Of a stretch of 64,000 nt of DNA, positions 1,097 to 61,113 are shown piece after piece. Both the position numbers and the translations under genes were made by a program. The notes beneath the pieces are model-generated. The model worked only from the letters and a program-made list of their open reading frames with translations, was not told the DNA's origin and searched no databases. The DNA is taken from contig OZ336885.1 of the NCBI GenBank assembly GCA_965287045.1, positions 61,628,001-61,692,000 on the forward strand, given 5' to 3'. The first letter of the stretch is position 1; each line of letters starts with the position of its first letter. This DNA is from Carcharhinus amblyrhynchos. Its lineage: Eukaryota.

Positions 1097-1132
1097 CTTG
1101 CTCATTCGAAGCTTTCACGACACTGTCAAGTT
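1097..1132 (-). CDS. 36-nt phase-1 micro-exon, (E)LDSVVKASNEQ
   Basis: cctaattgcttacag|AACTTGACAGTGTCGTGAAAGCTTCGAATGAGCAAG|gtaagc. Confidence 0.8.
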
Positions 1133-1165
1133 CTGTAAGCAATTAGGACACAGCAGTTTGCAGTT

Positions 1166-3930
1166 ATAGATTCATAGATCTTCATAGCATGGAACAAGGC
1201 CCTTTGGCCCAAAATGTCCAAGTTGCACCTTTATTTTCCACTAATAAGCTTATCCCATTGCCCAGGTTTGGCCCAGAGCCTCGATAGCCATCTTAGCCAT
1301 GTAACTGTCTAAACTTTTTCTTTAAAAATAAAATTGTACACAAGTCAACTACTACCTGTGGTAGTTGGTTCCGGATGCTCACCAGCCTCTGTGCGAAAAA
1401 GAACGAATGTCCCTCCGGACCCATTTCTCTCTCTCGCCTCTCAATTTAAGCCTATGTCTTCGAGTTTTAGACTCCCCCACCTAATAGAATATATCTTGAG
1501 AATCTAGCTGACGTATGTCCCTCATTTGTTTTAGACAGCTATAGCATAACCTCTAAAATCCCTGTGCTACAGAGAAAACAAAAGTTGAACTCGATCCAGT
1601 CTCTTCATAGAACTCAAATCATCAATTTCTGGAAACATCCACTTGACTATGTACATATACTGCAACATTTGTATTTTAATAAGATCCTTTCTATATTAAA
1701 AAAGGCCCAAACTGTACACAATATCCGAAGTGTGGCCTTATTAAAATATTGCAAAACGTCAACAAGACGTCCCAACTCCTACATTCAATAATCTCACCGA
1801 TTAAACCAAGCACCCCACATGCCTTTTTCACCACTCAGTCCATCTTAGAATCCAGTTTCAAGGAGCAAGGAACCTGTACCTCTGGATGTCTTTGTTCTGT
1901 AGCTCTCCTCAACAATCTATTATAAACGGTGTAAGCCGTGCGCTGATTTAATCGACAAAAATGCATCATCTCGCATTTAACTAAAATAAGCTTCATCTGT
2001 TCTTCTTCAGCCTGTGGCCCATTGGATCAATGTCAGGTTGAAATCCTATATACACACCTTCCCCGTCCACGATGCCACAAATCTGGTTTTATTTGCAAAT
2101 TTACTAACCACGCCTCCTAAATTCTCATCCAAATCATTAATATGAATGTCAAATAAGATTGTACCTCGCACCGAACTCTGAGGCACGCTGTGAGTCACAC
2201 TGTTAGAATTTGAAGAACAATCCCTTACAGCCGCCAACTGACTTCTGTTATCAAACCATTTTTTTTTCCAGTTGACGACTTCACCTTGGATCCCGTGAGA
2301 TTTCACCTCATGCAGCAATCTGCCATGCGATACCTTCTCAATGGCCTTGCTAAGGCTCACGTAGACAGCAACAAGTGCACCCCCTTATTCGACCTTCTTG
2401 GGTTCCCCTTCAAGTAATTCAATCCGTTTTTTGTGAGACATGATTGTCCACTCGCAAAGCCATGTTAAATGTCCCTAACCAGGCCTTTCCTCTCCAAATA
2501 AGTATAGATACTGTCTCTCACGATACCGTCCTCAAACGTAGCCACTACAGATGTAAGGCTCACCGGCCTTTCGTTCCCAGACTTTTAGCTGCAGCTCTTT
2601 TAAAGCAAAGGCGTAAAGACAGCATATAGTATCCACCAATATTCAGGCACCTCACCTGCTGTTGTCGACGATTCCAACATCGCTGCTCGGGTATCCGCAA
2701 TTTCCCCCGAGCCTCGCACTACGTCCCTGGATTGACTTCATCAAGTACCAAACATTTTGCCACATTGTTGTGCTTCAAGACTCCCAGCTCTTCGTTCTCT
2801 GTGTATGCTCCTCACGATGCCATTGTTTATTTCCCGAAGTTTCCAAACATCCATGGCTTTCTCAACAGTAATTACTAATGATAATTATTCAGTTAGGACC
2901 TCAGCCATCTCTTGATGATTCGGATATACGTGAGCTTGCCGATCCTTAAGAGGCCCAATTCTCTCCCTAGATACATTATTGCCCTTTTATGAATTTGAAG
3001 AATATCTTTTGTTTCTCATTTGCCTTATCTGGGAAAACAAAATTCTGCCTCCTTTTCCCACCTTATTTCTCTTTAAAACGACTCCTACACCAACTCTTCA
3101 AGAGATCCAACTGATTCCCAGTTGCCTATGTTTGTCATGTGCCTCCTTCATCTTCTTGACCTGGACCTTAATATCCTGAGTCACCCAGCGTTCCCTTCTT
3201 CTACCAGCCTTGCCTTTAACTCTGAGATGAATGTGCTTACCCTGAACGCTGGTTAACAAGCTTTGAGAGCCATCAAATTTCCAGGCGTTTCTGTGCCCGC
3301 CAACAGACTCCCACAAGTAACTTTTGAAAGTTTATGTCTGATACCATCAAAATTGGCCTTACCCCAATGTAGTATTTTAAAATTTGGGTCTGACCTATCG
3401 TTCTCCACAGCTATCGTAAAGCTAATGCAATTATGGCTACTGGTTCCAAAGGAATGCCTCACTAACACTTTGTCACTTGCCCTTTCTTATTTTCCAAATG
3501 AGGTCAAGTTTTGCCCCCTCCCTGGTGGGGCCAAGCACATACTGGGTGACAGATTCCTCGTCAATACATTCAACAGTGGTTTCTCCATCCAATCCTCTAA
3601 TACTATAGCTTTCCCACGCAATGTTATAGAAGGTAACATCCACTTCTACTACTATGCCATTTCCCTTGGGGCTATGAGTAATCTGCTTACATATTTTCTC
3701 CTCTGTCCCACACTGACGATTTCGGAGGTAATTGTTACAACCCAGAAAGTTAATTTCCCACTCCTTATTTCTCAGTTTTATCCAAATGGACTCAGTTGGA
3801 GAGCCTACGTATATAGCCCCTCTCAGTACCGGCGTGAAGTTTTCCCCAAACAAAAGTGCAAATCCCCCAACTCTGTTACGTTTTATTTTAGCTTTCTTGT
3901 GACATCTCTACCCTGAACATTGAGCTGCCT
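1166..3930 (-). mobile_element. Old degenerate CR1/HER1-type LINE (endonuclease to 3' end)
   Basis: 3' tail near 1166-1210 (reverse of ...gggccaaagggccttgttcc); RT remnants SKAIEKVSHGRLL, VPQSSVRG, INDLDEN and KFAN in ORF 2046-2360; endonuclease remnant ESIWIKLRNK...PTREGAKLDLI in ORF 3473-3853. Confidence 0.85.
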
Positions 3931-4854
3931 GTTACGTCCCTCCTTGAGCCATGTTGCTGTAATAGTCAGAACGCCCCTGAAATGTCGAAAACATGAGTTT
4001 GCTAATTTGCATCGGAAGTGCAAGCTGCACAGAAGTGCATGCATATTCCTGGCATGCCCCCGTAATGTTGAATGAAACGAAAAATTTCAGAAAATGGTAT
4101 TTTTCTATCGAAATCTCATAACAACGAGTGTATTCGATTTCAACTAATGTTTGTTCATTCATTTTGGTTCTCTCCATTCAATTAACAATATGATACGAGT
4201 TGATTCACTCGCAAGCAAATATTTCTTTCAAGATTTCTCTTGGTGCATTATGGCACATGAAACGATAGGTGTGTCAGCTGTAAACAGCGACATCAAGAAA
4301 CCTAATCTGCATTGCTTGTCCCCGGAAAATAACATTACACTTCTACAATGTTGCGATCAGCGTGCATTTCACCCGAAATTTAATAGCTACCTACAAAAAA
4401 AAACACAATTTTCTAACCCCTTGCTGTTCAATTCTCATTTTTGCCATTGTTACGATCATCACGGTCATTGTTACCAATATACTTATTTCATAACATGCTG
4501 CTTTCCCAATAAAGACCAACATTTATTTCCAAATGCATATGGTCGTTAGGAATGTATTATTGAACGATATTTTTGATCTTCTGCAGTGCCTGCTGAAGAG
4601 ACACCCGCACTATAGTTCCAGGAAGTTCACACATAACAGAAAACAAAAAAAAGTCTTGTGAGTTGAGAGGAAACATGTAGTTATTTCTGCGTCTACGTTT
4701 CTGCTGTGCCGCGCAATGGCAGGTTGTGCAGTTCTTGGTTAAACATGTGCTTTCATAGGATTCACGTTAGGATACAGTCGCTGAGTCAGTAAATGGTTCA
4801 AATTAATTAAGTTTTGCATCTACCTTGAACGGAACGTTTGCGGAACGTGCAGAG

Positions 4855-5000
4855 TTACAAAGTTGCAGAGTTCCTACTGTGCAGGAGGCCATTCATCCCA
4901 TCGAACCTGCCCCTACAACATCTTCCTCAGGCCCTATCCCGGTAACTCCAAAAATTTCCTTTGTTGCACTCCTGCAGCTAAGGGACAATTTATTATGGCC
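4855..5000 (-). mobile_element. HE1-type SINE 3' fragment
   Basis: Resembles the better-preserved SINE tails at 38161-38480 (ggaggccattcatcccatcgaacctgc...ctaagggacaattta). Confidence 0.6.
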
Positions 5001-5730: not shown

Positions 5731-6027
5731 AACAAAATACCAATATGCATTAACAACAGCAAGTTATGTCTGGAAAAACATAATGAAGTGAATTGTATTA
5801 GGATTTCCCATTCACATATGCCAGCCTCAGAATTCCCATCTTCAAGTGAACTTTGTTACGTGCAGAACGACATTTTTTTTTAGCCATTCAAATAATATAA
5901 TTACTACTGCAATATGATCAAGTGTGCTTGTTGCGATGAATGGCGGAACAATTAAAGTAGAGTTCATTTGCTGATTAAGGACATTTGTATCAATGTCTTT
6001 AGGCTGTTGAATTTCAACAATATGTAC

Positions 6028-6054
6028 CATTCTGCCTTTCCTTCAACATTTCTT
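6028..6054 (-). CDS. 27-nt phase-1 micro-exon, (E)EMLKERQN
   Basis: cattatgttttgcag|AAGAAATGTTGAAGGAAAGGCAGAATG|gtacat. Confidence 0.8.
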
Positions 6055-6425: not shown

Positions 6426-6461
6426 CTAAATCTTTCAAAGTTTCTTTGCATGCCTTAAGTT
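6426..6461 (-). CDS. 36-nt phase-1 micro-exon, (E)LKACKETLKDL
   Basis: caaatgtattacag|AACTTAAGGCATGCAAAGAAACTTTGAAAGATTTAG|gtgaga. Confidence 0.85.
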
Positions 6462-6639
6462 CTGTAATACATTTGTTTGTGACAATGTAAACTTGCCCAT
6501 TCTATGTCGGATTCCACAACAAATATGTTTATTTAAATTGACGGAACCGTTGAGGCAAATGTACACACCACGTTAAGCACAAACGACAACCAAATATTGA
6601 CAAGAAAATTAAAAAAAAGACGGAGGATTAGCGACTGTT

Positions 6640-9749: not shown

Positions 9750-9776
9750 CGTCCGCTGTTGATTGTTGCGTGTCTT
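9750..9776 (-). CDS. 27-nt phase-1 micro-exon, (E)DTQQSTAD
   Basis: ctaatattaaaacgttaatag|AAGACACGCAACAATCAACAGCGGACG|gtaatt; the pyrimidine tract is weak but length and phase are exact. Confidence 0.6.
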
Positions 9777-10455: not shown

Positions 10456-10491
10456 CTATTCCTGCTCTGTATCGCCTGTTTCTTTTTAATT
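10456..10491 (-). CDS. 36-nt phase-1 micro-exon with GC donor, (E)LKRNRRYRAGI
   Basis: tattcgcatag|AATTAAAAAGAAACAGGCGATACAGAGCAGGAATAG|gcgagt. Confidence 0.6.
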
Positions 10492-12272
10492 CTATGCGAA
10501 TATAGCATCACTTGGCTGAACCCTTGGTTATTCATTCAAGGGATGTGTGTTTCACTGGCTGGGACAACATTAATTATTCTCGTCCGATTGCCTTGAGAAT
10601 GTCGTGGTCAACTCCCTTGTTGAAGGTGAGAGGTCGAATGCTCCTGAACCCTGAAGTGTTCCCCAACAGGACTCCAATACCACCACAGATGTTCAGCTCC
10701 TTTCCCGTGTTTGTAAAATGTCTGTAACGAAGTCATTAGCTGAGCAGCTCTAATGCAAGAAAAACATGGCTCCGTTTAGTGAGTTAGTGATCCAGAAGTA
10801 GTGTTTCATTCACCTTTTTATTATGTTTTCCATCACGTTACCAACGAACCAGATCAAACAGATGGAACCATAAGTTGGCTGATATCATTAGACGTATGCT
10901 GCGTGATAGAATGTTGTTGATTATTTAAACAAATTGTATCACGCATGCCGATTAATCCGACAGGCATCCTCCTCCTCTTCCCGAATTCTATTAGAAACTC
11001 TCCTCCAAACACTGGAGATAATCCGTAACGGCAGCCAATTAAGGTCAGCTGTATAAAAATGAACTCGCAAAAAACGACCCACACTGTATTGCTCAGTGAC
11101 ACTGTAATAACTCTGAGGCCGTAACCAGCGCAATTGGGCAGGGGACCTTAAAAAAGAAACAATGCAATGTCAACAGGCCAAAATCTTAAATCAGGCTGGA
11201 ACAAAGGTAAATCACTTTCTCAACTTTCATCCACTAATTTACGGGCCAGCAACTATGAACAATATGATGTGTAATGCGGTGCAAAATAATAATTTCACAT
11301 CTCATTACCCTCCTCGTTTATTTTTATTTCCTCAGTTGTTGATGTGCATCGTAGAACAAGAGGGCAAAAATTAAACATCTTTCAATTTGAAAAATGTTTT
11401 GAGATTATATCAGCCAAATTAATAATGTTCCGATTTGATGAGATTTTTGAGTCACATAAATTTTCTGAGCATAATGCAAAGTAAGGCGATACTGAATGGA
11501 CGCAGATGCGAAACGTCACACTGCAGATGCACGGCGATTATTTTAACGTCTTGCAGGTAAGAAGTATCAATTACGAATTCCCGAAGACGTGTAATTCAAT
11601 GTAATGTGCTGAAGATTTTTTTGACGAAAGTATTCATGACAAATGTTGTTGTTCTCATCTTAGATGGTGTAAACCCTTTCAATTGAAGTTTCAACAGATA
11701 ACATGCTGCATGAAAATGTTTACGGAGAGAGCCAGGATGTGATGCTATCCAAACGGCATGACAATGGGCATAGACAGCGTTGAAATGTGGAACACAAAGC
11801 CATACATTTTGGACTGTCGTGATGACTGCAATGTACCAAAACTCTGACTGATTAAGTAGTAATGTTATAATTTGGAATAGGTATAGCTGAGTACAGTCCT
11901 TCAATAATATGAGTGTTTGGTGTTTTGTTGCCTTATATCCGTATGGTTATTTATTTTGTTTTAGTCAAGAGGGGAAAATTAATTGTGTAATCAATAGGGG
12001 TGAAAAATGTGTTAATTTGCTCACAGAATATGGCAAACTCCCATTTCCCTTCTTTTAAGGAACATGTGATAAACCTAAAATATCAAAAGAATTCAATGCA
12101 AAATATATAATTAAAACTTTACTTAATTCCTACAGAGAAGCGTTAATGTGAAATGTGAAGTCCCATCCATTATCCTTGCTGCATGCTAACATTCAACCTT
12201 TCTTTTAGTATTTGCTAAGTGAATAAGTGTTATATTTTGAAACAATTATTTATCTACATATGTAAAGATCAG

Positions 12273-12407
12273 TTGCATATCTTGCCTTCTGATTTCGAGA
12301 AACGAAAATTTAATTTTTGTTCGAGATGGAACTAGAACTTGCATGTCTTGCCTTCTGAGTTCGAGAAACGAAAATTTAATTTTTGTTCGAGATGGAACTA
12401 GAACTTG
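12273..12407. repeat. Two-copy tandem duplication, 66-bp unit
   Basis: ttgcatRtcttgccttctgaKttcgagaaacgaaaatttaatttttgttcgagatggaactagaac at 12273 and 12339, with 2 mismatches. Confidence 0.95.
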
Positions 12408-14065: not shown

Positions 14066-14092
14066 CTTCTTCCCTGGATTTCAGTTTTATTG
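14066..14092 (-). CDS. 27-nt phase-1 micro-exon, (A)IKLKSREE
   Basis: gatgtaccttaacag|CAATAAAACTGAAATCCAGGGAAGAAG|gtaagt. Confidence 0.8.
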
Positions 14093-19943: not shown

Positions 19944-19970
19944 CATATGATGCTTCCAGAATTGTCTTCT
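19944..19970 (-). CDS. Candidate 27-nt phase-1 micro-exon, (E)KTILEASY
   Basis: catacaaaaatag|AGAAGACAATTCTGGAAGCATCATATG|gtcaat; both splice sites are weak, but length, phase and position after a 36-nt exon fit. Confidence 0.4.
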
Positions 19971-20228: not shown

Positions 20229-20264
20229 CTGAGTATTCGTTGGTGTTTTTGAATTCGTCCAGCT
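20229..20264 (-). CDS. 36-nt phase-1 micro-exon, (E)LDEFKNTNEYS
   Basis: ctattctactttccag|AGCTGGACGAATTCAAAAACACCAACGAATACTCAG|gttgtc; paralogous to 42876-42911. Confidence 0.75.
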
Positions 20265-21155: not shown

Positions 21156-21182
21156 CCTCTTGTTTTGCTTTCAGTTCTTCTC
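21156..21182 (-). CDS. 27-nt phase-1 micro-exon, (R)EELKAKQE
   Basis: ttttttttacag|GAGAAGAACTGAAAGCAAAACAAGAGG|gtacac. Confidence 0.85.
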
Positions 21183-21568: not shown

Positions 21569-21604
21569 TTAATTTGTTCAATAAGTCTTTGTATTTGCTC
21601 AGCT
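21569..21604 (-). CDS. 36-nt phase-1 micro-exon, (E)LSKYKDLLNKL
   Basis: atcttcattccag|AGCTGAGCAAATACAAAGACTTATTGAACAAATTAA|gtgagt. Confidence 0.85.
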
Positions 21605-27400: not shown

Positions 27401-28721
27401 TATTATGACACGTAAGGAGATGGTTATATGTAGCTGTGTATTAAATATTTCCGCCTCCAAATGTCAGAAATATGCAAGGGCACAAGATCAGTCGTCGTTC
27501 CATCGAAGTGGTTTTTATTATCTAACCCAACGTGGCACTTTGCGAGCGGTGGGCTTACCGAGTACCAGGCGGCAATATAATGTGTGTCAACATCCCTGGC
27601 ATCGTTGAGAATAAAGCCTCATACACCACCTGCTGAATTTAGAAGTGTAATGACTACTGAGGCACACAGTGGTCCAGGTCGTCATGATATTGCCATGTTC
27701 CAAACATCTATTACTTTAGTAGCTGATACGTGGCAAATAGTCAATGAATTTCACATGTAACCATAGCCATGGCCACCCTGCTAATTTGCACCTCCTAGTC
27801 TTCACGAATGCTAACGAATCCTACGTGAAGACAATCGCAGATCATGTCCGTCAACCCGTCCAGCGAATTGGCCGATGATTGATATGATTTCCCAATAGGA
27901 TATGTATGCATTTTATCGATGACGCACATTGTGATTCTTTCAGCTGAATAACCTAAATGGCAGAAATCCACTGATTTAGTTCCCCAGCAATGCCTTGGAT
28001 AACCGTGGTCAATCTGTCTGCTTTATACTTCAAACAATGTTGTCAGTAAGTTCCTTTTGGGAATGCTTCCATTAAAAAAAAGTTTTCCAATTAATCACCA
28101 TTTTCTCCATCATTATAAAATACTGTTTTCATCTCATAACGATATGCATGTGAGGTTTCATGATGAGTAAAAGATGAAATACACCAGCTCTCTAATCAGC
28201 AAAATCGGAGTTCTACGCTGCCAATAAAACATGAGTTGATTTCGGAATTAATAATGGCAACGTCCCAAGTTCTTATTTGCACTGTACATCTGTTCCTGCC
28301 AGATGATTGTTGCTCTGACAACCTACGGCACTATACTGTCGGTTAAATGAAACTGAATTTATCCTATTTCGAGAAGGAACCAAAAATACTCTCAGTTATG
28401 AACGACGATAATTCAACTCTCACACCGCATAACCTGGAAGTGTTGCATAGCAATTCCCGAAACCAGGCATTTGTATGCTAATCTATCCGTTTCCAATCCT
28501 CGCGTTTTGTTGACTCATTTGAGATCTGGAGCTAACGAGTACATCAAGAATTATTAGCAAGAAATAGTTTATAGAATGTTTTCCTCTGACACTTCATGAA
28601 AAACTATCCAATATTCGGTGGCAGGCATTCATCCTCATTTAGATCACTGTGTCTCACGATATGACTCCAAAAGTGCACGTCATATTTAATTCCTTCTGCA
28701 TAAGGAGCATTTTCAACCCAC

Positions 28722-29496
28722 CACTCTTTGCCGTCCAACAGAGGGTCCTCGGGGTCCTTGTGCATGAGTCGCAAAAACCCAGCCTGCAGGTGCAGCAGGT
28801 GGTCAGGAAGGCTAATGGGATGCTGGCCTTCATAGAGAGGGGGATTGAATATAAAAGTAGGGAGGTCTTGCAGCAGCTGTATAGGGCATTGGTGAGGCCG
28901 CAGCTGGAGTACTGTGTGCAGTTTTGGTCGCCGCACTTATGCAAAGATATTTTGGCCTTGGAGGGAGTGCAGAGGAGGTTTACTAGGCTGATACCGGAGT
29001 TGAGGGGGTTGGGCTATGAGGAGAGGCTGAATAAACTCGGCTTGTACTCGTTAGAGTTCAGAAGAATGAGGGGGATCTCATTGAGACATATAAGATGATG
29101 AATGGGATGGATATGATCGAGGTGGAGAGACTCTTCCCGCTCAGAAAGGACAGTAGGACTAGGGGGCACAGCCTCAAGATAAAGGGAGGGGGGGGGGGCG
29201 ACGGTTTAGAACGGAGTTGAAGGGGGACTTCTTCACTTAAAGGGTGGTGAATCTCTGGAATTCTCTGCCCGTTGAAGTGGTGGAGGCTGCCTCGCTAAAT
29301 ATTTTTAAGACGCGGATTGATGGGTTTTTGATAAGCGAGGGGATTGAGGGTTATGGGGAGAGGGCGGGAATGTGGAACTGAGCAACGACAGATCAGCCAT
29401 GATCTTATTGAATGGCGGGGCAGGCTCGAAGGGCTAGGTGGCCTACTCCTGCTCCTACTTCTTATGTTCTTATGTTCTTTTTGGCAGCGTCCAGTT
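28722..29496 (-). pseudogene. 36-nt micro-exon (E)LDAAKNWTAKS split by a CR1 insertion (halves 29478-29496 and 28722-28738)
   Basis: tttcgcatccag|AACTGGACGCTGCCAAAAA joined to TTGGACGGCAAAGAGTG|gtgggt gives 19+17 = 36 nt, open in phase 1. Confidence 0.75.
28739..29477 (+). mobile_element. Young 5'-truncated CR1/HER1-type LINE
   Basis: Highly similar to 184-917; ORF 28649-29098 contains LEYCVQFWSP; (CTTATGTT)n tail. Confidence 0.95.
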
Positions 29497-29978: not shown

Positions 29979-30005
29979 CGTCTTGCTTTGCAATCAGTTT
30001 TTCTT
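29979..30005 (-). CDS. 27-nt phase-1 micro-exon, (E)EKLIAKQD
   Basis: cattcttctacag|AAGAAAAACTGATTGCAAAGCAAGACG|gtaatc. Confidence 0.85.
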
Positions 30006-30364: not shown

Positions 30365-30400
30365 CTGAGTCTTTCAATGCTTTTTTGCACGTTGTGAGCT
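30365..30400 (-). CDS. 36-nt phase-1 micro-exon, (E)LTTCKKALKDS
   Basis: taacttgttccag|AGCTCACAACGTGCAAAAAAGCATTGAAAGACTCAG|gtgagt. Confidence 0.85.
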
Positions 30401-31080: not shown

Positions 31081-31752
31081 TGAAGTAGGGAAAGGGTTAA
31101 TGGTTTTGTAATTAGAATATGTTGCAAACATAATCTTTCATTGTGATTGATCTTCTCAAGCTTATACTGCTCCTGGCAGTAATATAAGTTATTTGTGCAT
31201 GTATTACATACTTTAACTTTCATTTTTATAAAGACAGATAGTTTAATGTGGCTGTTAATGTGTGCACTTTGCAAATCTTACCTGCTTGTGTTGGTTGGAT
31301 ATCATTATACAGATGGTTCTTTACAATAACGGCTTTTGACAGCTCCTGATGGCAGATTGTGATACCGGCTTTAAACAGGAAGAGCCCTGCTGGGACAGCC
31401 ACGATCGCGCAAGTAACTTCAAAGACAGGGATGCCGGTACTGCTGCAGAAAGGCTTTGAACCGTAACCGTGCGCCATGACTGCAGCTACCAGTTGGGCTG
31501 TGAATTGTGATTAAACCTGGGGCTGTATCACGACCTAGGAAGGAAGGCCCGGAGTTCTGGCCGGAATGAGAAACTTGGAATCGTGATTGACACGAAGACT
31601 CATGATGTATACATGACCACTTGGGTTTGCCTTCTATGAGAAGTCTGTTAGTCCTACTACTCCCAAAATTCTAGAATAAAGCTCAGAGTTTTCAAAGAAA
31701 AATCACTGTATTTTGACTCACTAACAGCCTGAGGTATTATTTTACCGACACA
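31081..31752 (+). repeat. 5' LTR (672 bp)
   Basis: Collinear with 35294-35681 joined to 36317-36561. Confidence 0.9.
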
Positions 31753-35293: not shown

Positions 35294-36561
35294 TGAAGTA
35301 GGGAACGAGTTAATGCATTTTGTAGTCAGAATATGTCGCCAATGTAATCATTCATTTTGACTGTTCTTCTCAAGCTTATACGAATCCTGGCAATAATATA
35401 ACTGATTTGGTCATGTATTACATGCTTTAACTCTCATTTTTTATAAAGGCAAATAGTTTGATGTAGCTGTTATTTTGTAGACTTTGCTAATCTTATCTAT
35501 TTGTGTTAGTTGGACATCATTACACAGATGGAGTTTACAATACCAGCTTTTGACAGCTGCTTATGGCAGATCACGATACCAGTTTTAAACAAGAAGACAA
35601 GGATGCCGGTACTGCTGCAGAAAGCTTTTGAATCATGACCGTGTGTCGTGACTGCAGCCGCCAGCTGGAATATGAATCATGGGGGCGAGGGGGATTGAAT
35701 ATAAAAGTAGGGAGGTCTTGCTGCAGCTGTATAGGACATTGGTGAGGCCGCAGCTGGAGTACTGTGTGCAGTTTTGGGCGCCGCACCTGCGCAAAGATAT
35801 TTTGGCCTTGGAGGGAGTGCAGAGGAGGTTTACTAGGCTGATACCGGAGTTGAGGGGGTTGAGCTATGAGGAGAGGCTGAATAAACTGGGCTTGTACTCG
35901 TTAGAGTTGAGAAGAATGAGGGGAGATCTCATTGAGACGTATAAGATGATGAATGGGATGGATAGGATAGAGGTGGAGAGACTCTTTCCGCTCAAAAAGG
36001 ACAGTAGGACTAGGGGGCACAGCCTCAAGATAAAAGGGGGGCGGTTTAGAACGGAGTTGAGGAGGAACTTCTTCACTCAAAGCGTGGTGAATCTCTGGAA
36101 TTCTCTGCCCGTTGAAGTGGTGGAGGCTGCCTCGCTAAATATTTTTAAGAGGCGGGTTGATGGGTTTTTGATAAGAGAGGGGATTAAGGGTTATGGGGAG
36201 AAAACGGGAAAGTGGAACTGAGCCACGACAGATCAGCCATGACCTTATTGAATGGCGGAGTAGGCTCGAAGGGCTAGATGGCCTACTCCTGCTCCTATTT
36301 CTTATGTTCTTCTGTTATGATTAAACCTGGGACTGTATCACGACCAAGGAAGGAAGATGCGGAGTTCGGGCCGGAATGGGAATCTTGGAATTGTGATTGA
36401 CACTAAGATTCATGCTCTATAAATGTCTACTTGTGTTTGTGTTGTATGAGAAGCCTGTTGCCCTTCTTCTCCCAAAATTCTGGAATAAACTCCAGAGTTT
36501 TGAAATAAATCCACTGTATGTTGACTCTCTAACAGTCTGAGGTATTATTATACCTATAACA
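35294..36561 (+). repeat. 3' LTR, interrupted by CR1 and lacking ~42 bp relative to the 5' LTR
   Basis: Direct comparison with 31081-31752; the indel is bounded by AAGA repeats. Confidence 0.9.
35682..36316 (+). mobile_element. Young 5'-truncated CR1/HER1-type LINE inside the 3' LTR
   Basis: ORF 35679-36221 is the CR1 RT C-terminus; tail cttatgttcttctgtt; ATG is present at both junctions. Confidence 0.95.
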
Positions 36562-37460: not shown

Positions 37461-37940
37461 CATAAGAACATAAGAACATAAGAAATAGGAGCAGGAGTAG
37501 GCCATCCAGCCCTTCGAGCCTGCTCTGTCATTCAATAAGATCATGGCTGATCTGTCGTGGCTCAGTTCCACATTCCCGCCCTCTCCCCATAACCCTTAAT
37601 CCCCTCGCATGTCAAAAACCCATCAACCTGCGTCTTAAAAACATTTAGCGAGGTAGCCTCCACCACTTCAACGGGCAGAGAATTCCAGAGATTCACCACC
37701 CTTTGAGTGAAGAAGTTCCTCCTCAACTCCGTTCTAAACCGCCCCCCTTTTATCTTGAGGCTGTGCCCCCTAGTCCTACTGTCCTTTCTGAGCGGGAAGA
37801 GTCTCTCCACCTCTATCCTATCCATCCCATTCATCATCTTATACGTCTCAATGAGATCTCCCCTCATTCTTCTAAACTCTAACGAGTACAAGCCTAGTTT
37901 ATTCAGCCTCTCCTCATAGCTCAACCCCCTCAACTCCGGC
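37461..37940 (-). mobile_element. Young CR1/HER1-type LINE 3' end, forming the 3' terminus of the CORO2A-derived insertion
   Basis: ORF 37562-37942; the tail reads cataagaacataagaacataagaa on the plus strand. Confidence 0.95.
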
Positions 37941-38159
37941 AACAGGAGTTTTATTCAATGCTTTAAGATGTCTGCTCCCATTCTTTTAGTAACTTATCCC
38001 AGTGAAGTTTCTTTTTTGAAGCGATTACACACAGGCTTAACTAACCGCGCACAGAAAATGGATACCAGACACAAACAGTGTACGATTAAACATTACAATT
38101 ATCATGTTGCTGTTTGGGGGATCTTGCTGTGTGCTTATTCACTGTTGAGTTGCGTTGAA

Positions 38160-39400: not shown

Positions 39401-40193
39401 TCCCAGAATTGAGGTAGAACGTCATCCATGGCTGTACTGAATGGTAGAGCAGGTTCGAATGGCCTACTGCTTGACCTAAGCTAACTCTCCAGCCGGGTCA
39501 CCCATAACACCAGGGAGTCGGTTTGTTCTATACCCACACCATCTTCTTCTCACTTTTCCTTAATGGAGATTAACATCGAGCTGCCTGTAAAACCAGCCTC
39601 GTACCCAATCCAAGGCTTCTACCTATTTATCTATCCTTTTAGGGCAAGGATAGAGACATTTTTGAACAGTAAAGGAATTAAGGGTTATGGTGAGCGGGCG
39701 GCTGGAGCTGAGTCATGGCCAATGACTTTGATGGTTCTGGAATATCAATGGCGGCCATTGGCGAACCATCTCTGCCACTGGAACACGTGCTGCAGGGGGA
39801 GTGGGAAGTCCCGGCCAGAGTCTTTCTCCTGAACTGTTAAAAATGTTCTGTATAGTTCTACTTTTAATTGTAACAGCTCGATAAGCAGATAAGATGAGCC
39901 ATGATCTTATTGAATGGCGGAGCAGGTCCGAGAGGCCAGATGGTCAACTCCAGCTCTTTATTGTTCTTCTGATGCCCGGAGAATTAGATTAATATTAACC
40001 CCATTGTCTCTCTACAATGTCCTGCACACGCAGTATTAAAATCCATTTCATTAAAGATGGATAGATTGTTAATTCAGTCATGAGCTAATCCAGAAAAACA
40101 TGCCTTTTAACAACAATTCTGTAAAGGAATAAGGGTGTAAAACAAAAAGGTTTCTGGTAAGGTTCATACAAGTACAGTATGTATAAGACAGAC

Positions 40194-41108: not shown

Positions 41109-41135
41109 CGTCCTCCTTTGACTTCATTTTTACTT
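41109..41135 (-). CDS. 27-nt phase-1 micro-exon, (K)VKMKSKED
   Basis: taaatcctgacag|AAGTAAAAATGAAGTCAAAGGAGGACG|gtgcgt; similar to the 48355 and 14066 exons. Confidence 0.75.
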
Positions 41136-41811: not shown

Positions 41812-41847
41812 TGCATAGGGACATCGAGTTTGAGTTTGCGTTAAGTT
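41812..41847 (-). CDS. 36-nt phase-1 micro-exon, (E)LNANSNSMSLC
   Basis: tttatccaagcacag|AACTTAACGCAAACTCAAACTCGATGTCCCTATGCA|gtaacg. Confidence 0.55.
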
Positions 41848-42875: not shown

Positions 42876-42911
42876 CTGAGTCATCTTCGGTTTTCTTTAT
42901 TTTTTCCAGCT
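42876..42911 (-). CDS. 36-nt phase-1 micro-exon, (E)LEKIKKTEDDS
   Basis: ttttatttgtttcag|AGCTGGAAAAAATAAAGAAAACCGAAGATGACTCAG|gttctc. Confidence 0.8.
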
Positions 42912-44232: not shown

Positions 44233-44259
44233 CTTCCTGATTTGCCTTCAGCTCTTCCT
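44233..44259 (-). CDS. 27-nt phase-1 micro-exon, (K)EELKANQE
   Basis: cctccatttcag|AGGAAGAGCTGAAGGCAAATCAGGAAG|gtaaca. Confidence 0.85.
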
Positions 44260-44659: not shown

Positions 44660-44695
44660 TTAAATCTTTAATGTCCTCTTTGCAGGCCATGAGCT
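44660..44695 (-). CDS. 36-nt phase-1 micro-exon, (E)LMACKEDIKDL
   Basis: cattcttattccag|AGCTCATGGCCTGCAAAGAGGACATTAAAGATTTAA|gtgaga. Confidence 0.85.
   Translation of the reverse strand, partial: SSWPAKRTLKI

Positions 44696-46742: not shown

Positions 46743-46744
<2 letters not shown>

Positions 46745-46819
<75 letters not shown>
46745..46819. repeat. (TG)n microsatellite, ~37 units
   Basis: Perfect TG run with an imperfect extension to ~46860. Confidence 0.99.
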
Positions 46820-46820
<1 letters not shown>

Positions 46821-48354
46821 TATATGTGCGCGTTCATATGTGTTTGTGTGTGTGTGCGCGGGGTGGCGGAATGGTGTTGGAAAACTGATGTCCAATGGGA
46901 GTGTTGAATTCGGATTAGTCACACCTGTAGGATGTACTCCATCAACAAAACAACTGAGTTTCTGCCGCCCATTTTTGTTTCGTTGTTCGGAAACCAGGTA
47001 GGCAAAAACATACTTGCATTGCCAGTCCAGGGTCGCTGTTTGCGGCCGCTTAGAACGTAAGTTATTTTGTTGAACGAGGAGCTAGGTTCCCGGAAGAACT
47101 GTTGGGGGCGACCAGGTGTGAACCGAGCGGGCATTAAATTCCGATAACATTAAATTTGTATTTTGATATCCATGCATAAAAAAGGTATCTTTCTTGTGAC
47201 TCGGAATGTCCGGTCAAATATCCACAACAACCATGAAGCAACTGAAAGCGAAAAGCAACAACATTTTAATGACATTGCGTCTAAATTATTCGGCAAAGAC
47301 GTGGCCGATAAATTGTGCCATAAAAGGAATTATAAATGCCGAAGCAGAACGCTTGATGGAAGCAATTCCAAAGATCAGATGCAACATGCTGAATCTGAAG
47401 CGGAAACTTTTTTTAGGGATTGCAAGCGCTCATAGGCTACTGTTCACATGAGCTGTCGGGCAAATCGGGCAGCTTCTGAGCAGAGAGAATGAAACCAAGG
47501 ACTCTGGTCTGGATTTCCTGTGATCAGAACTGTCGAACTGTCATTCAGGCTCTCTCCACAGATGCTGAGATTTTTCAGTGCTTTCTGCTTTTCTTTCAGA
47601 TTCCATCATCCGAATATTTTGTATGAATGCATTGTTTAGTCGGTTCCAAGTTGTTGAAAAAAGAGTCCGCAATTTGGAGGGTTTGAGAACCTACTGGGTT
47701 TTACGAAAAATATCGTTTTTGTTCGTTATTTTGTGGGATTCTAACAATACAAAAACGTTGTACTTCATCATGTTTTCAAGGAAGTAGATACCTCTCAGAG
47801 AGTATAGGTTTGATCCAATAGCGTCTATACATTTATATACATTCATGGAATTCAAATAACAAAATGGCAGATTAGTGGTTATGCGTTATGCAACGTAAAT
47901 TATTAATGTCGAAATTCGAATCCGAAGATTACCCCTTCTGCTATGTGTCGAGGTCCTTGGATTCTTCGTTCCCAGTTCGGAGTGAAAATCATTGGGGTAA
48001 CCACTCAAGACGACCTCAGACAACATGTCTGTATCTTCATAACGGAGGAAATAATCCTCATAACGGAGAAAACGGCATCCATGTATGTCAGGTTAAATTC
48101 AATACAAATCCGGCAGATGCCAGCTCAGGCCGATCTGAATATAAGATAAACGAATCTGTCAGTCAGATCCAGAACAGTTTCCTGCATATCCTACCATTCT
48201 TATAGTCCTATCGTGTCTGCTGATGAGAGCGATTTGAGGCGTGTGTGTCTTTCTCATGGACAGGGTTGGGGTAGGTTCTGCAGGCCTGAAATGGGAATGA
48301 ATGGCATCATGCCTTCAATTATCTTCGTGGAATGCTAGTATAACCATCACTTAC

Positions 48355-48381
48355 CATTTTCTTTCGACTTTATTTTTTCCT
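48355..48381 (-). CDS. 27-nt phase-1 micro-exon, (E)EKIKSKEN
   Basis: cacatatcttatcag|AGGAAAAAATAAAGTCGAAAGAAAATG|gtaagt. Confidence 0.85.
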
Positions 48382-51610: not shown

Positions 51611-53104
51611 GAAGTTCATTGAGTTTAATGGAGGCAACCCTTCCTCTCTGCACTGCTTTCTCGCTTGCCATCTGTCATGTCATGTTTCGTGCACTCTCGC
51701 TGTGTTTTTTTTTTGACTTACTGGAACTTTTCAATGATTTCTTCACAGATTTTTTTCTACTGTGGGTCTTTTCCGTAGAAAAAAAAGGCTGTATTACTCG
51801 TGACAGAGGTGTACAAAAAATGCTTATGAGTGGAATGCATCTACAATTTTGTCTCTGATTGAATTTGTCTCTGACTCAATTGAATGCGCTATTGTTACTT
51901 CAGTTGAAATTGGTTCAGTGAAAATCACGCTGTTCCCTTATGCTAGTGAGACAATTGTTACCACATTACTGCTCGCTCAGATGCGGAACACACTGTCATA
52001 AATGCATTTGTGGATTATTTTGTGCAGACCATCAATTGCTTGAGTTTGTTTCTCTCTGCAATGCTTTTGTCCATATCAACGACCTGTTTCTGTAGCACAT
52101 TAGTTCTATTTCCCTCAAATATATACTCTTAGCATTAACATTCTTTCGGAGGGATAACAAGAGTTATTTCAAATGCGAGCGGTTTCTGTTATCTTTGCAT
52201 TAAATTACGGATAGGCAATCTGATTTACTGAGCAATGGTTCGATTGAATTAATGGATCCTTCGAAAAATAAATCAGGTTTTCTGGTAAATTGCATTCACA
52301 GCATTCTGTATTCTACTGTAAGGGCTGTCCGGTCGGTCCGTGGTTCGTACTGGTACTTCATTTCATTGGAACACTTCTGCGATGCCGCTGTTGGATGGCC
52401 TATTGTGTGGAACTTGCACATTCTCCCAGAGCCTGTATGTTACCACAGTCCAATTAAGTATTGGTACAGAGGACTGGCCATGCTAAATTAAACCCCCACG
52501 TCAAGTTCGATGGATTGGCCATCACACAACGTTGCGCGAATGAGGGATCGAGTGGGCCTAGGTCCAGTGCTCTTGCTGTTGATTGCTGCACAGTGGAAGA
52601 GCAAAGTGGCATTCTTCTGCACACACAATTCTATGAATTAATAGTGCAAACTTTAATTTAGCTACGCAGTTCATATAACATTCCGAAAATTCGGAAATGT
52701 CGTTTCTGTTAACCTGAAACGTCAACAGATTTTTTTTCTTTATTTCGTCCTGCCTGAGAAGGAAAAACAAATAGCTTGATATATTCACCAACGAGATATT
52801 GCAGTGCCAAAATATTTGCTTTCAGAGAATTCAGATGCACTGATGTAATGACGGATATTCTGATTTACCAACCTACACCATTTTAATCATTTTTTTCTAA
52901 ACTAAGTCAATGGCAATCAGCAATTGAAGAAACGATCCTGTTTCGATTAAGTCGTCGGATTTGCATGCTTCATATTTCACACTTCTGACAAATACAATTA
53001 AAATTGGGCTGAGAGTGAACAGACCAAAGAAACAATATGCAATGTTCCCGCTTCACGTTGCTTAAGCTCCACACAGCTCCCCCATATGAACGCTAATTAC
53101 AACT

Positions 53105-55678: not shown

Positions 55679-56083
55679 CGCTTGGTTTTGCTTTCAGCTT
55701 TTCTTAGGCAACTCGTAAATTATTGACATCGGATATGAATATCAATGCTCGCAGCAGGGACAGCAATTGTGGGAAGCTATTGCCTTTGTTAAAAATTGTG
55801 ATGCACACAGAATAGAAGAGAATGTGATAAGGGCGTTTTATATCAATTAAACGAAATTTCAGCCATCCAGGTCACTGTTGACGTACCGATTGAAGCAATC
55901 TGAAAATGGATGTTTCTGTATTGGCAATCTTTCGTGAGATACATTTTACAGCAAGAAGAACACAACCTTTCTCTCCGTTCTGTCACAGGTGAAGTTCCAG
56001 TCTGAACGTCGTGCCTATGTCTGAATAATATATTCATGTTTCCTCCTCTCAGTCATTCAAAAATTCCTTGCGTAGAGTGAAAG
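55679..56083 (-). pseudogene. Decayed copy of the 36+27 micro-exon pair (56048-56083 and 55679-55705)
   Basis: acag|CTTTCACTCTACGCAAGGAATTTTTGAATGACTGAG|aggag has an in-frame TGA and has lost its donor; AAGAAAAGCTGAAAGCAAAACCAAGCG|gtacga has an altered acceptor; the 342-bp spacing is like that of the intact pairs. Confidence 0.55.
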
Positions 56084-57239
56084 CTGTCATGATGGAGAAG
56101 TTCCAGTGATTATTTTAATTCGCAACAAACTATTTCCCTCATGCCGCTATGCATTGAAAATAAGGGAAAATGTGCAGGCAATCATGAACATAATATTTCG
56201 GAGGAAATAGCAAGGAAACTGGCAAACCCATTGTTTCATGTGCAGAAATCGTCGTTAAGCATTTGAATGATTTCGAGCGTCATGATTTAAGAACATAACA
56301 TTGCAATGCACATCATTTTTTGAGCTATGAACCTTTGGAGATCACAGAGAAAAAAAGCAAACTGCAATGCCCACAGTTGGCTGTTTGAGGCAACCATAGT
56401 TTGACAATAGTCAGTACTGTGGGAACGCATGTTTGCCCGGTTGCATTCATAAAGACTCGGACATCTGCGAGGGACATCATAGAAGCATGTTGATGGACGC
56501 TGCAGGAATATGAATTTTAAACCTCCTGTCATGGTTTTGAAAGCGCCCGGTACTGTGCGAACGGTAATTGAGCTGAAACCTCCGCCTCGTGCGCTGTTGT
56601 GAGGAGAGACATTGGCCTTATTTATTTGCATTTAGTTTGTTGGTCTGAATGCAGCAATCAGAAGCAGTCGACATTGGGTTTTTTTTTGCGCATGATTTTA
56701 AAAGTTATTTTGCAAAGATGCAAAACATATTTTATGAAATAAATGAATTTGTATTTTTTAACAACATTGTCATGACAACTAATCCCAATGATATATGACA
56801 ACGTGAATGTCCGGGTCTGGAATTTATTTCTGCATTCGGATTTTTCTATGTATTTTAAACAGCCTTTAACCATATTTTAAAAGACTCCTAGGTGCAACGT
56901 TGATTCAGCTCGTCGAGGGCTTCAGGAGAGTGAATCGTTTAAGATGGGGTATGCAAGCCTCCTTCAATGTTTAGCACACATATCAGAATTTTACTGCTGG
57001 ACATTGGTTCTAATGTAACTTGGCTAATAAAAATGCTTTAGGAAAACGGACGGCTTATGAGGATAAATTAAAATTTCCTGTAAGCCGATGTCAAGTTGAT
57101 GTTGCAGAATCCAGTGCAGCTTGGAAATAGGAATCATCTTCTGCCATTGAAAGAACATCGCGCTTTTCACTTATTTCTTAACTGAAGTTATTTTTATGAC
57201 TTTGATGTAGGCGTAAAAGAGTAACGTGTCAAGTGAATC

Positions 57240-57460
57240 AAATCCCTTCCTTTCGTCCTTTTGTTCCTCGCCCTCCCCCTCTTTCCTCACCTTTTTTCAC
57301 CTTCCCTCTTTTTCCTTGTCCCCTCTTATCTACTTGCCCCATTTTCCACCTCATTTCCCCTTCACTCCTTTCCTTCATCCTTCTCTTTCCGCTCTTCACC
57401 ACATTTCTCACCTTCCCCTTTTTTACCCTGCTTCGTATCATTCCCTCACTTCCTTCACTG
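57240..57460. repeat. Low-complexity polypyrimidine/polypurine tract
   Basis: Almost only C and T on the plus strand. Confidence 0.85.
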
Positions 57461-57964
57461 TTAAGAAGATAATTGTTACATGAACGAGTAGATACTTTAT
57501 TGATTGTTGTTGGAGAAATATATTTTGTATGACACTTAAATAGACGAGACAAATAAATATATCAGTGCAGCTGTTAAAGTGCTCAGTTACATGTTTACAT
57601 TGTATTACAGTTTTTGTCTTCCTGATATTATTTTTCTTAGTAGATATTCTTCACTATATTACAGAATTCAACTGAACATTGGAACAAAACGACTATTTAA
57701 ATATAATGTTGTGCAAATCATTTTTTAAACAGGTGGAACATTTAAAGATGAAAATAATAAACTGATTAAGCAAGGCAGAAGAGTACTATTGATAAACACA
57801 TCTAGTTTTTCCACGGTCCAAATAATGAATCCTCTTTGATCGATCTCATCCAGTCATCCAAATCATCTGTACGAAGTCCTGACTATATTCTGAATGAAAA
57901 CACACAAATACTTAGAAGCAGACCACACATATGAAAAAATTCCATAATTATACAATATCGATTT

Positions 57965-58232
57965 CGTGTTACACGGTGTCAAATGGAATAGCACTGCTGC
58001 CTCACAGGTCCATGGAAGCAAGTGCAATTCCGGCCTTGGGTGACTGTTTGTTTGGCGTGTACACGGTCTTGCGTGTCACCATGGGCTTTTTTCGTTCGCT
58101 TTGATTTTTTGCTGAAGTCCAAAGATGCATATGAATGTCATGGGGTCATTGGGATAGGATCTTACCGAATTTGGTGTCGGCCAAGTCTCAGTGGGCTGAA
58201 TTGCCTCCTTCTGCACTGTAAGGATTCTATAC
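57965..58232 (+). mobile_element. Degenerate HE1-type SINE
   Basis: tagcactgctgcctcacag...agtccaaagatg...tgggctgaattgcctccttctgcactgtaaggattctat. Confidence 0.75.
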
Positions 58233-58419
58233 GAGAAATGTTCTCGCTACATTTGCCCCCAAATTGGACAATCGAGCCCAAGTTTAACGTGTCCATGGTC
58301 TGCCCATCACGCGCTACCATTCCTGTGCTGGGTGGAAAAGGAAAATTCACCCCTATAATTGTATGTCTCGGTTAAAGTAATTTGTTCTTCTTATCCTTTG
58401 ATGCAAAAAAATAAAGCTG

Positions 58420-59250
58420 ATAAGGAAGTTGAAAAGAAAAGGCGGAAATATTAGCAGCAATCTTCAGCCGGTTTTGCAGAGTTGATGATCCATCTTGGCC
58501 TCCATCATTTGTCCCCAACATCTCATATGCCAGTCTCCATCCAATTCGATTCACTGCACGTGATATCAAGAACGGTTGGCGGCACTGGATTCAGCAAACT
58601 GAATGGGCCCTGATAACATTCCGGCAATAACACTGAAGACTTGGTTCCATAACTTGCTACTCCCCTAACCAAGTTATTCCAGTACAATTGTAACACTGGC
58701 ATCGACGAACAATGTGGAAAATCGCCCAGGTATGTCCTTTACAGAAAAAAAAAAGGACAAATCCAACCCGGCTAACTGATGCCCAACCAGAATACTCTCG
58801 ATCATCAGTTAAGTGATGGATGTGGTTATTAACAGGGCTATCAGGCAACGCCTGTTCAGCAATACACTTCTCAGTGACAGCCAGATTTGGTTTTACCAGG
58901 GTCACTCAGATCCTGACCTCATCCCAGCCTTGATTCCAACATGGACAAAAAAGCTGAATTCCAGAGGTGAGATTAGAGTGACAGCTCTTGACGTCAAGGC
59001 CGCATTCGACCGAGTGTGGCATCAACTAGCCCAAGCGAAACTGGAATCAATGGCTTTTAGGCGGTAAACTCTCCGCTGATTGAAATTGTACCTGGTGCAT
59101 AGGAAGATGGGGGTGGTTGTGGAGGGTCAGTCATCTCAGCTCCAGGACACCTGTATGACTCCCTCAGTGTATTATCCTAGGCCCAACAATCTTGACCGGC
59201 TTCATCAATGACCTTTATCATAAAGTCAGTAGTGGAGATATTCACCGATC
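58420..59250 (+). mobile_element. Old LINE RT fragment (family of 30995-31080/36562-37360)
   Basis: ORF 58813-59067 ALDVKAAFDRVWH; upstream GPDNIP remnant; PQ..ILGP remnant near 59160. Confidence 0.85.
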
Positions 59251-61086
59251 TGACATTGATTTGTTCATGACTGGCGTTTGCCTCTGTAGCACGTTAGTTA
59301 TACTTCCCGCAGATAAACACTGTGAACAAAAATACTAGGCATTCTGCCATAAATCGGGGTTAACTTTCGAATTCCGCCACTGATATGCTGTCCTTCATCT
59401 CTCATTGTCACATTATTTCATTACAGAATGATCATTGTGTTGAAGCAAGAACGCTACGCCGTGATTTTGAAGATACATTATTGGGGATCATGGCAAACAA
59501 CAGGTCTTCGGCTTCCGACAAACAAAAACACAGTACACACTGCAATCTGTTTTCTCTTACCACCAAGCTGAATAGTCTTTACAGACGAATAATCTCTTGA
59601 ATTAACCGTAGTCGAATTACATGATGGTATTTCTGTTGTTGTCTCGCTATAGTCTGAGCACGTCTTCAATTACAATCGAACAACGTACATTACTACGTTT
59701 TCAAGGCTATCAGCAAAAGCATTGTTACCATCAGCTCAATGCAGAATGTGCTGACTTAAGGCGTGTAATTTCAACGACTTTAAAATCTAGTTAAACCACA
59801 CTTTGACTCTTGATTGAATTACTCACTTCATGGCACTTGGGTGGCGTGAACATATCTTGCCGCTTTTCAGTCCAAGCTGGGATATTTGTTATATACTGCT
59901 TCATTACCTGACAACTCGGGAATGGTTCTGAAATTTATAGGATCATTTGCGGGCATTCCGCATCAGATCCCATGATCGAAGCATTCTTGCATCTGATGTT
60001 GGCTGGAAACAGAACACCAGCCAGAGGAAAACTGCAATTATATTTTGCGAACGAGGAGGTTGATATGAAACAATTACAACCCTGCTAATGTTTACCAACG
60101 AGGACTCGACATTTCACATTTGTAATCGTCTTAAATGCTATTCAGTCAATTTTTGCCGTTGATGTTATTCAGTGTTCAGCTGCTTTTGTTTTGAAACAAC
60201 GACTCGTTGTTGTTTTACTGTGGGGGAAGATAGCAAATTAGATTTAGAATCACAGCCAGATTGGCCTTGAACTTGTACCGTACAACAACAGCCTGATTTT
60301 CCCCCGTTCCTGAGTCAGATATTCAAATATGCACGCCCTATTCATTTCGAGGTGAAGTGGTAAGCTCTCATATTCCGTCATTCCAAACCAATAATGTTAA
60401 TAGTAGTGGGTCGGTACATGTCCGTCTCAAAGCTATTGTGTCACTGTCTTGTAATATGGTAGGGGGATCAACAAAGTTGTACGGTTTGAATTCCTACTCA
60501 TTTTGAAGTGAGGCTATGCTCTCCAATCTTCCTGAGACGTGTGACATTGTTTGGTACAATGAGATGAATATCATTTCAGGAATGTGAGAGATATTACGTA
60601 ATTTGAAATTAGCATTCTCTATTGCATACTTATACAATACATCTTACATTTAGACATTACACGATTTGAATTATGAAGATCGTAATACTTCCACTGAAAT
60701 GACTTGGCATGACTTACGCTTTTATTGGCCGCGTACTTTCGTATTTATCATTCTGAATCAGCTCAGTATCTATTGTGCCAGTCAGCCAGAATCAACCGCG
60801 TTAAGATAAACCAGACGTATTGTACGAAACACATAGAGTTGTATCCTTGTTTTAAATATCAAGTCAATATTAGCAGATTTTAGACACAGTTCCATCATCA
60901 TCAAGAGCGCAAAATCATCACCTCATCCCTGGCAGGCCAAGTGAACAGTTATTTCAAGAAAAACAAAATGAACGGGGCGCGGATTATTATCGTAGAATTG
61001 TGCCGAAGTTATTTGGGTGGCGTTGTTTAAATTACAAAATATGTCTTCTTAGTGCACTTGAAAATGACAATTTCTAAATCAATTAC

Positions 61087-61113
61087 CTTCGTCTGTTGCT
61101 TTCGCCTTTTCTT
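61087..61113 (-). CDS. 27-nt phase-1 micro-exon, (E)EKAKATDE
   Basis: tgcaatcgaacag|AAGAAAAGGCGAAAGCAACAGACGAAG|gtaatt. Confidence 0.7.

Follow-up and report, generated by a model that had tools for sequence, protein, structure and literature searches.

Enterophilins, described from the guinea pig, are cytoplasmic long leucine-zipper proteins that carry tens of heptads and a C-terminal B30.2 domain and have neither immunoglobulin (Ig) nor RING domains. A role in trafficking is reported for enterophilin-1 and SNX1 (PMC13749957), B30.2 domains are presented as ligand-binding heads (PMC8813856), and the number of heptads in butyrophilins (BTN) is found to vary between species (PMC12841164). Chicken BG proteins have an IgV domain, a transmembrane (TM) segment, and a tail encoded by 13-36 exons of 21 or 24 nucleotides (nt) (PMC4046983), and zipper protein, which is a soluble BG tail, regulates the actin-myosin interaction (PMC4046983, PMC8813856). 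Schistosome micro-exon genes (MEGs), which are restricted to schistosomes and encode host-exposed proteins, are built for the most part from symmetric exons no longer than 36 nt, and these can be skipped without loss of frame (PMC8293314). The present study concerns a stretch of 64,000 nt from the shark Carcharhinus amblyrhynchos (contig OZ336885.1, here C16, positions 61628001-61692000 of the 2.92-Gb assembly GCA_965287045.1), hereafter the window, in which an earlier note made from the letters alone had proposed a hidden minus-strand array of 36- and 27-nt micro-exons encoding a modular coiled coil.

The gene family to which this array likely belongs is a heptad-plus-B30.2 architecture at a far larger scale than those known. 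As in the butyrophilins, a heptad region encoded by short exons precedes a C-terminal B30.2 whose best match among solved structures is BTN3A1; butyrophilins, however, have an IgV-IgC-TM portion and few heptads, whereas here no Ig or TM exon was found, the heptads number about 300, the module is a 36+27-nt exon pair, and the B30.2 domains fall on a separate branch (support 100/99) of an unrooted tree in which BTN and TRIM rows are intermixed. A long heptad tail built from many small exons is shared with BG and zipper protein, but the domain lists available for BG contain no B30.2, whereas the approximately 210 exons found here are mostly of 36 or 27 nt (only 15 of 210 are of 21 nt), end in a B30.2, and have no detected IgV or TM partner. 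The PRY-SPRY TRIM proteins likewise place a coiled coil before a B30.2, but they add RING and B-box domains, neither of which was found in the locus or in six relatives. The combination of zipper and B30.2 without Ig or RING that is predicted here is that of the enterophilins, a likeness of overall architecture. With the schistosome MEGs the locus shares a coding region in which symmetric exons no longer than 36 nt predominate; here, in contrast, the exons together specify a single heptad rod and gene lengths are in the megabase range, and no homology is claimed.

We consider it very likely that a micro-exon gene family exists in this genome. For the gene that contains the window, it seems to us reasonably probable that this is one giant gene encoding a coiled-coil rod that is cytoplasmic, comprises 2,100 residues or more, carries a B30.2 binding head, and varies in length by splicing. 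With somewhat more reserve, we lean towards the wider proposal of an undescribed family of cartilaginous fishes, older than the split between chimaeras and sharks and rays, whose megabase micro-exon genes would in this genome fill 6 Mb with six members and about 1,000 exons of 21-36 nt (an extrapolated number), the largest gene being approximately 1.7 Mb long, and each gene encoding a B30.2-tipped coiled-coil ruler of up to 300-400 nm with length and kinks set by the splicing of 12+9-residue modules.

All segments discussed here lie on the minus strand, and positions outside 1-64000, given as plus or minus offsets, extend the window numbering. The 19 segments listed for the window in the earlier note were all recovered by a splice-signal scan and profile scans as phase-1 segments; AG precedes all 19, GT follows 18 of them and GC one (10491), no stop appears when they are joined in order, and none of the 361 pairwise junctions creates one. 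All nine window 36-mers start A[AG] plus Leu, as had been noticed. The generic splice scan separated the strands poorly (25 minus-strand vs 15 plus-strand sites, including 11 of the 19 segments); a profile built from those 11 gave seven more, and the last, at 19970, came from a profile made outside the window. Held-out profiles trained on 69+61 exons outside the window assigned at least 15 bits to 15 segments and 12.3 bits to a sixteenth (42911), a test that is not fully independent because the training set was grown from window seeds. The plus strand and shuffled sequence, which had been named as the controls for the array, did not yield equal numbers, with one plus-strand site in the window and none in each of 20 dinucleotide shuffles vs 16 window segments. 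Three calls are weak, namely 10491 (-5.5 bits), 19970 (-10.4 bits), and 41847 (ranked below the best 14 of the 36-mers); alignable paralogous flanks are lacking in all three, as they are in 13 of the 16 well-scoring calls.

The extent of 60 kb that had been assigned to the array proved far too small. Traced in 1.264 Mb of contiguous DNA, the micro-exons run from +525,633 to -532,590, and the run including its B30.2 exon, here called block B, measures 1.07 Mb, of which the window is a 6% inner slice. The strict catalogue of block B holds 210 exons, of which 101 measure 27 nt, 94 measure 36 nt, and 15 measure 21 nt. At 12 bits or more in leave-one-out scoring, 103 minus-strand vs 4 plus-strand sites of 27 nt were obtained (of 6557 and 6302 candidates), and 99 vs 1 of 36 nt (of 6379 and 6149 candidates). 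The lengths of strong AG...GT segments, as scored by an array-trained splice model, form spikes on the minus strand only, with counts at 27, 36, and 21 nt of 61, 65, and 11 vs 1, 0, and 1 on the plus strand. All 15 catalogued 21-nt exons stand in one run, at +428 to +476 kb (approximately C16:62.056-62.104 Mb); beyond the interval +427 to +477 kb the 21-nt model is not reliable (33 minus-strand vs 15 plus-strand sites). The 36- and 27-nt exons alternate in 148 of 194 steps, compared with a mean of 97.4 and a maximum of 123 in 10,000 shuffles, gaps of 25-50 kb without catalogued exons occur within the block, and the 5'-most 36-nt exon found is at C16:62153598-62153633. Joined, the catalogue encodes 2,117 rod residues, and stop-creating junctions make up 0.7% of all exon pairs.

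The proposed module of phase-1 symmetric micro-exons, in which a 36+27 pair encodes 12+9 residues or three heptads, held across this catalogue. Large hydrophobic residues occupy positions 2 (71%), 9 (80%), and 12 (52%) of the 36-mers and position 4 (85%) of the 27-mers, position 5 of the 36-mers is Cys or Leu, and the sixth core position is mostly Lys (55/101); the hydrophobic positions 2, 5, 9, 12, and 16 first read from the window are thus seen on 92 exons of 36 nt and 101 of 27 nt, and the hydrophobic period of the joined rod peaks at 3.5. The core of a pair would accordingly place Leu 2, 9, and 16 at a, and Cys/Leu 5, Leu 12, and a mostly Lys 19 at d. Cys at position 5 is restricted to the array's middle third, where 26 of 51 exons carry it (1 of 14 and 0 of 27 in the other thirds), and it could cross-link chains or bind metal. 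Only two of the 210 exons contain stops, vs approximately 19 expected among still-detectable exons under neutral drift simulated at half the nearest-paralog distance (Poisson P 9e-7; 8e-4 if divergence is only 0.05). Minus-strand copies with a non-canonical acceptor or donor number 27 and plus-strand copies 5; none of the 27 contains a stop, and a few of them may instead be exons of 30 or 45 nt. These patterns would fit ongoing exon duplication and retirement, with stronger selection on frame, size, and core pattern than on the sequence itself.

At lower coordinates, where a B30.2 or terminal exon had been suggested as worth seeking, block B ends in an intact B30.2/SPRY exon (C16:61084200-61084720, L095:6200-6720, minus strand, approximately -543,300), 543 kb below window base 1 and some 11 kb beyond the final strong micro-exon. 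Its acceptor is in phase 1, it contains a stop, and AATAAA signals are present; the block B run contains no second B30.2 exon, intact or broken. The earlier note had held that the identity of the gene could not be determined from the window, and it was indeed the neighbouring DNA through which the gene family was identified. The five closest paralogs of this B30.2 genome-wide are all on C16, 37-47% identical, and open, and they mark blocks A (60.449 Mb, minus), C (63.068 Mb, plus), D (63.149 Mb, minus), E (63.736 Mb, minus), and F (66.436 Mb, plus); the 2.064 Mb examined contain six B30.2 exons of the family and no more, a single one in each block and every one of them open. The other blocks were sampled with forty 10-kb pieces, which showed the exon types of block B throughout and of which the 34 within blocks gave 65 micro-exon calls on the strand of the downstream B30.2 vs 4 on the opposite strand, and the 6 outside or between blocks gave 2 (hand counts). 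Extrapolated from these 340 kb and block B, the cluster would hold roughly 1,000 micro-exons in 6 Mb. Block E reaches from approximately 65.42 to 63.74 Mb and has the same order as block B, namely a small 36/27 group, the 21-nt run, a long 36/27 run, and the B30.2, and the first two exons of the two blocks are each other's best matches. Micro-exons were not found at C16 63.684-63.734 Mb, and for blocks A, C, D, and F no 5' end could be placed. In block F, the exons of the 5' part (C16:65.505-65.596 Mb, plus strand) are mostly of 21 nt, so that a 21-nt run is present in at least B, E, and F.

Relatives in other cartilaginous fishes were found with a six-paralog B30.2 profile and a full HMMER search, comprising two genes in catshark, one in electric ray, one in skate, and two in elephant shark, a set that marks the source organism as a cartilaginous fish and likely an elasmobranch; single-sequence protein searches, one of which covered, like the profile search, proteins up to 2,000 residues (aa), gave nothing above 35% identity, and the Atlas search gave generic SPRY clusters only. 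The B30.2 of block C shares 75.7% identity with the catshark RefSeq model XP_038668997.1, in which the peptide before the B30.2 corresponds, in order, to three separate block C segments bounded by AG and GT (24, 27, and 27 nt, scoring 36, 31, and 34 against an opposite-strand best of 24). For XP_042192744.1, an elephant shark model of 1,697 aa, parsing into 12-/9-residue modules gave a score of 141.6 against a shuffle maximum of 55.5; three shorter relatives scored narrowly above their shuffle maxima and one short piece did not, and four control coiled coils stayed within their shuffles. Among the isoform models of the relatives in catshark, electric ray, and elephant shark, which are of a kind that normally rests on RNA alignments, the differences are exact 9-residue cassettes, with one further difference of 6 residues and one of 7. 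The earlier suggestion that exon skipping tunes the length of the rod gains indirect support from these models and needs one correction, in that skipping a single 36- or 27-nt exon keeps the frame and shifts the heptad register by two residues, so that only pairs or 21-nt exons keep the register. SPRY/PRY was found in the six relatives scanned and Ig, RING, or B-box families in none. In the unrooted B30.2 tree, whose rows were chosen by similarity, the relatives and the six local domains form one side of the long branch (length 0.7) vs 26 BTN, TRIM, and other rows. Most relatives are named TRIM39-, TRIM58-, TRIM69-, or A33-like in RefSeq, names that appear to rest on the B30.2 alone; databases contain partial models only, under TRIM-like or unrelated names, and no description of a micro-exon B30.2 family was found in the full text searched, a body with few subscription papers and with supplements outside its scope. 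A two-copy complex prediction for residues 17-295 of the skate relative scored 0.01 vs a mark of 0.32 and was not used as evidence.

Signal, IgV, and TM exons had been expected at higher coordinates, and five approaches failed to find them. Neither a motif search of the locus nor tblastn with BTN and TRIM proteins of fishes and mammals gave an Ig, TM, RING, or B-box exon; Pfam gave no Ig-family match among 106 Cys/Trp open reading frames (chosen of 258); a hydrophobic exon scan gave 4 stretches, none a convincing TM exon; and IgV/IgC profiles, which score 80-190 bits on most held-out Ig domains, had a best E of 0.28 in the 2.064 Mb, including both head-to-head junctions. RING and B-box profiles had a best E of 0.86 in the same DNA, with held-out controls at 67-136 bits. 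With all four exon types looked for and not found, the gene fits the definition of neither the butyrophilins nor the TRIM proteins, and in the unrooted tree its B30.2 stands on a branch separate from the intermixed rows of those two groups. Upstream of the first micro-exons of blocks B and E nothing common to both was found, a masked comparison giving only the first two micro-exons and unmasked cross-comparisons of the 5' regions giving repeats only; a very short first coding exon would fit.

If the block B segments are spliced in order, they would yield at least 2,117 rod residues and a B30.2 of about 172 residues. Coiled coils rise 1.48 A per residue, and two such chains would wind into a rod of approximately 300 nm if it is dimeric and continuous. 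The B30.2 head would bind a partner, with the rod likely serving as a spacer or tether in the cytoplasm, a role also proposed for the heptad tail of chicken BG (zipper protein); the reading draws on the role of B30.2 domains as ligand-binding heads and on the regulation of the actin-myosin interaction by the soluble BG heptad tail. Removal of a 36+27 pair or of a 21-nt exon by splicing would take out whole heptads and preserve the register, and removal of a single 36- or 27-nt exon would shift it by two and kink or loosen the rod; splicing could therefore set both length and flexibility. Over evolution, rod length would change by exon-pair duplication and splice-site death.

Several observations weigh against this giant-rod gene. 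The block B gene is predicted from genomic sequence, its start codon and first exon were searched for and not found, its likely function as tether or spacer follows by analogy only, and its likely cytoplasmic location depends on the absence of signal and TM exons. The two stop-bearing exons, 21.7 and 71.8 kb below the window, must be skipped. The ratio of nonsynonymous to synonymous substitution rates (dN/dS) was 0.58 (p 0.35) in 10 recent duplicate pairs, indicating weak amino-acid constraint on the rod, and close to 1 across eight older pairs (hand sum), 72 of the 90 pairs (flank identity <0.73) having been dropped as aligner noise. Of the 194 neighbouring exon pairs, 46 do not alternate, and a dead copy of the other type lies between only 10 of these. 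Models of the relatives are for the most part short (202-460 aa), so that inclusion of the full length may be uncommon, and XP_042192744.1 begins with a short hydrophobic stretch whose counterpart was not found in the locus of this genome, its N-terminal 328 residues matching nothing in the genome, nor as short exons.

The main rival to a long rod is a pool of cassettes, in which the exons are real and internal promoters or heavy skipping would produce many short rod-B30.2 isoforms and no protein of 2,100 residues, with variety as the aim, as proposed for the schistosome MEGs. The short RefSeq models of the relatives, with their alternative starts and skipped 9-residue cassettes, the weak amino-acid constraint, the rarity of stop-making junctions across all exon pairs, and the excess of splice-dead copies on the minus strand would all suit it, but the 36/27 alternation over 1 Mb and the continuous 3.5-residue period fit in-order inclusion, one elephant shark model comprises 1,697 aa of modules, and the 5'-most exons are conserved between blocks B and E, and we regard such a pool as rather unlikely. 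It is highly improbable, in turn, that block B is a set of several smaller genes or decayed remnants with only the exons beside the B30.2 in use: the 25-50 kb gaps, the dead copies, and the two stop-bearing exons could be explained in this way, but there is only one B30.2 exon per block, intact or broken, the depletion of stops holds throughout the catalogue, and blocks B and E have the same large-scale order.

A membrane-anchored receptor of butyrophilin or BG type, with a huge cytoplasmic tail and with Ig and TM exons too diverged or distant for detection, would agree with the best solved-structure match of the family profile (the BTN3A1 B30.2, 110 bits; TRIM21, 93) and with the 21-nt exon run near the 5' end, BG tails being built of 21-nt exons (PMC4046983). 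The failed Ig profiles, the 106 Ig-free reading frames, the lack of a TM exon in the scan, the absence of Ig from the six relatives, and the separate B30.2 branch make it quite improbable. The generic splice scan and the 3 weak calls of 19 leave room for chance AG...GT matches or pieces of dispersed repeats at 41847, 19970, and 10491; for the array as a whole this account is refuted, to within the slightest residual doubt, by the strand asymmetry, the shuffles, the 27- and 36-nt spikes, the alternation, and the matches to proteins of other species.

If spliced as predicted, the genes of the six blocks would be among the most exon-rich vertebrate genes, for which the 363 exons of titin provide a benchmark, and approximately 6 Mb of one chromosome that seem to be gene-free repeat DNA would be six genes. 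Standard annotation shows the family only as short or misnamed TRIM-like models. The locus is a natural setting in which to test how near-identical micro-exons, in their hundreds, are recognised as exons and joined in the right order, how coiled coils grow by the birth and death of exon pairs, and whether the length of a molecular rod can be set by splicing, and it bears on the evolution of B30.2 proteins with heptad tails such as butyrophilin and BG.

Within the window, the segments are given here in transcript order, with held-out scores in brackets. The series opens with a 27-nt phase-1 micro-exon at 61087..61113 (36.4 bits), below which are two features absent from the earlier list, a 27-nt copy at 55679..55705 with a dead acceptor (no AG), likely a retired exon, and a borderline 36-nt candidate at 52714..52749 (7.0 bits; 14.8 leave-one-out). 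Micro-exons of 27 nt at 48355..48381 (37.0 bits), 36 nt at 44660..44695 (43.5 bits; flanks alignable to a paralogous exon outside the window), 27 nt at 44233..44259 (36.0 bits), and 36 nt at 42876..42911 (12.3 bits; 26.2 leave-one-out) precede the weak 36-nt candidate at 41812..41847, which scored 6.9 in the profile from splice-scan segments and fell outside the best 14 when held out. Beyond it are 27 nt at 41109..41135 (30.2 bits), 36 nt at 30365..30400 (50.2 bits), 27 nt at 29979..30005 (40.6 bits), 36 nt at 21569..21604 (30.1 bits), 27 nt at 21156..21182 (38.3 bits), and 36 nt at 20229..20264 (22.2 bits), and then the weak 27-nt candidate at 19944..19970, the best 27-mer of its interval at -10.4 bits. 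A 27-nt micro-exon at 14066..14092 (39.1 bits) is followed by a second previously unlisted 27-nt copy with a dead acceptor, likely also retired, at 11309..11335, and by the weak 36-nt candidate with a GC donor at 10456..10491 (-5.5 bits). The last four are 27 nt at 9750..9776 (24.1 bits), 36 nt at 6426..6461 (48.2 bits), 27 nt at 6028..6054 (32.7 bits), and 36 nt at 1097..1132 (24.2 bits).

Tandem Repeats Finder gave nothing in the window related to the micro-exon array. The window also holds truncated 3' ends of long interspersed nuclear elements (LINEs) with open reading frames for the C-terminal part of reverse transcriptase, on both strands and mostly 83-96% alike (184-917, 28643-29477, 35676-36321, 37462-37945, and 39638-39965), two copies (82-85%) of another repeat (31104-31649 and 35318-36459, the second split by a LINE piece at approximately 35680-36315), a (TG)56 microsatellite (46745-46856), and two tandem copies of a 66-nt unit (12273-12407).

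Elsewhere in block B, a recent tandem duplication of about 28 kb at approximately 90% identity copied at least nine catalogued micro-exons (C16:61.130-61.185 Mb, L085-L090), and recent short duplications left three near-identical 36-nt exons in a row (C16:61.976-61.994 Mb, L069-L071). Decayed low-copy repeats with fragments of reading frames like those of long terminal repeat (LTR) or other retroelements lie at C16:61.076-61.081 and 65.446-65.454 Mb (these two 64-75% alike) and at 62.140-62.144 Mb. Genome-wide PRY and V-set searches, with 150 scored of 373 and 1794 candidates, gave no C16 match among those scored and were uninformative. The next-best B30.2 match outside C16 is at C9:106383661-106384164 (34%, E 2e-28) and may be a seventh, more distant member. 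Very large clusters of PRY-containing exons, likely a TRIM-type expansion, were seen at C9:96-112 Mb and on C41, C46, C53, and C73 among the 150 of 373 candidates scored. Between blocks B and C lies a palindromic element of approximately 900 bp with inverted ends (L112:5260-6190), probably a non-autonomous DNA transposon.

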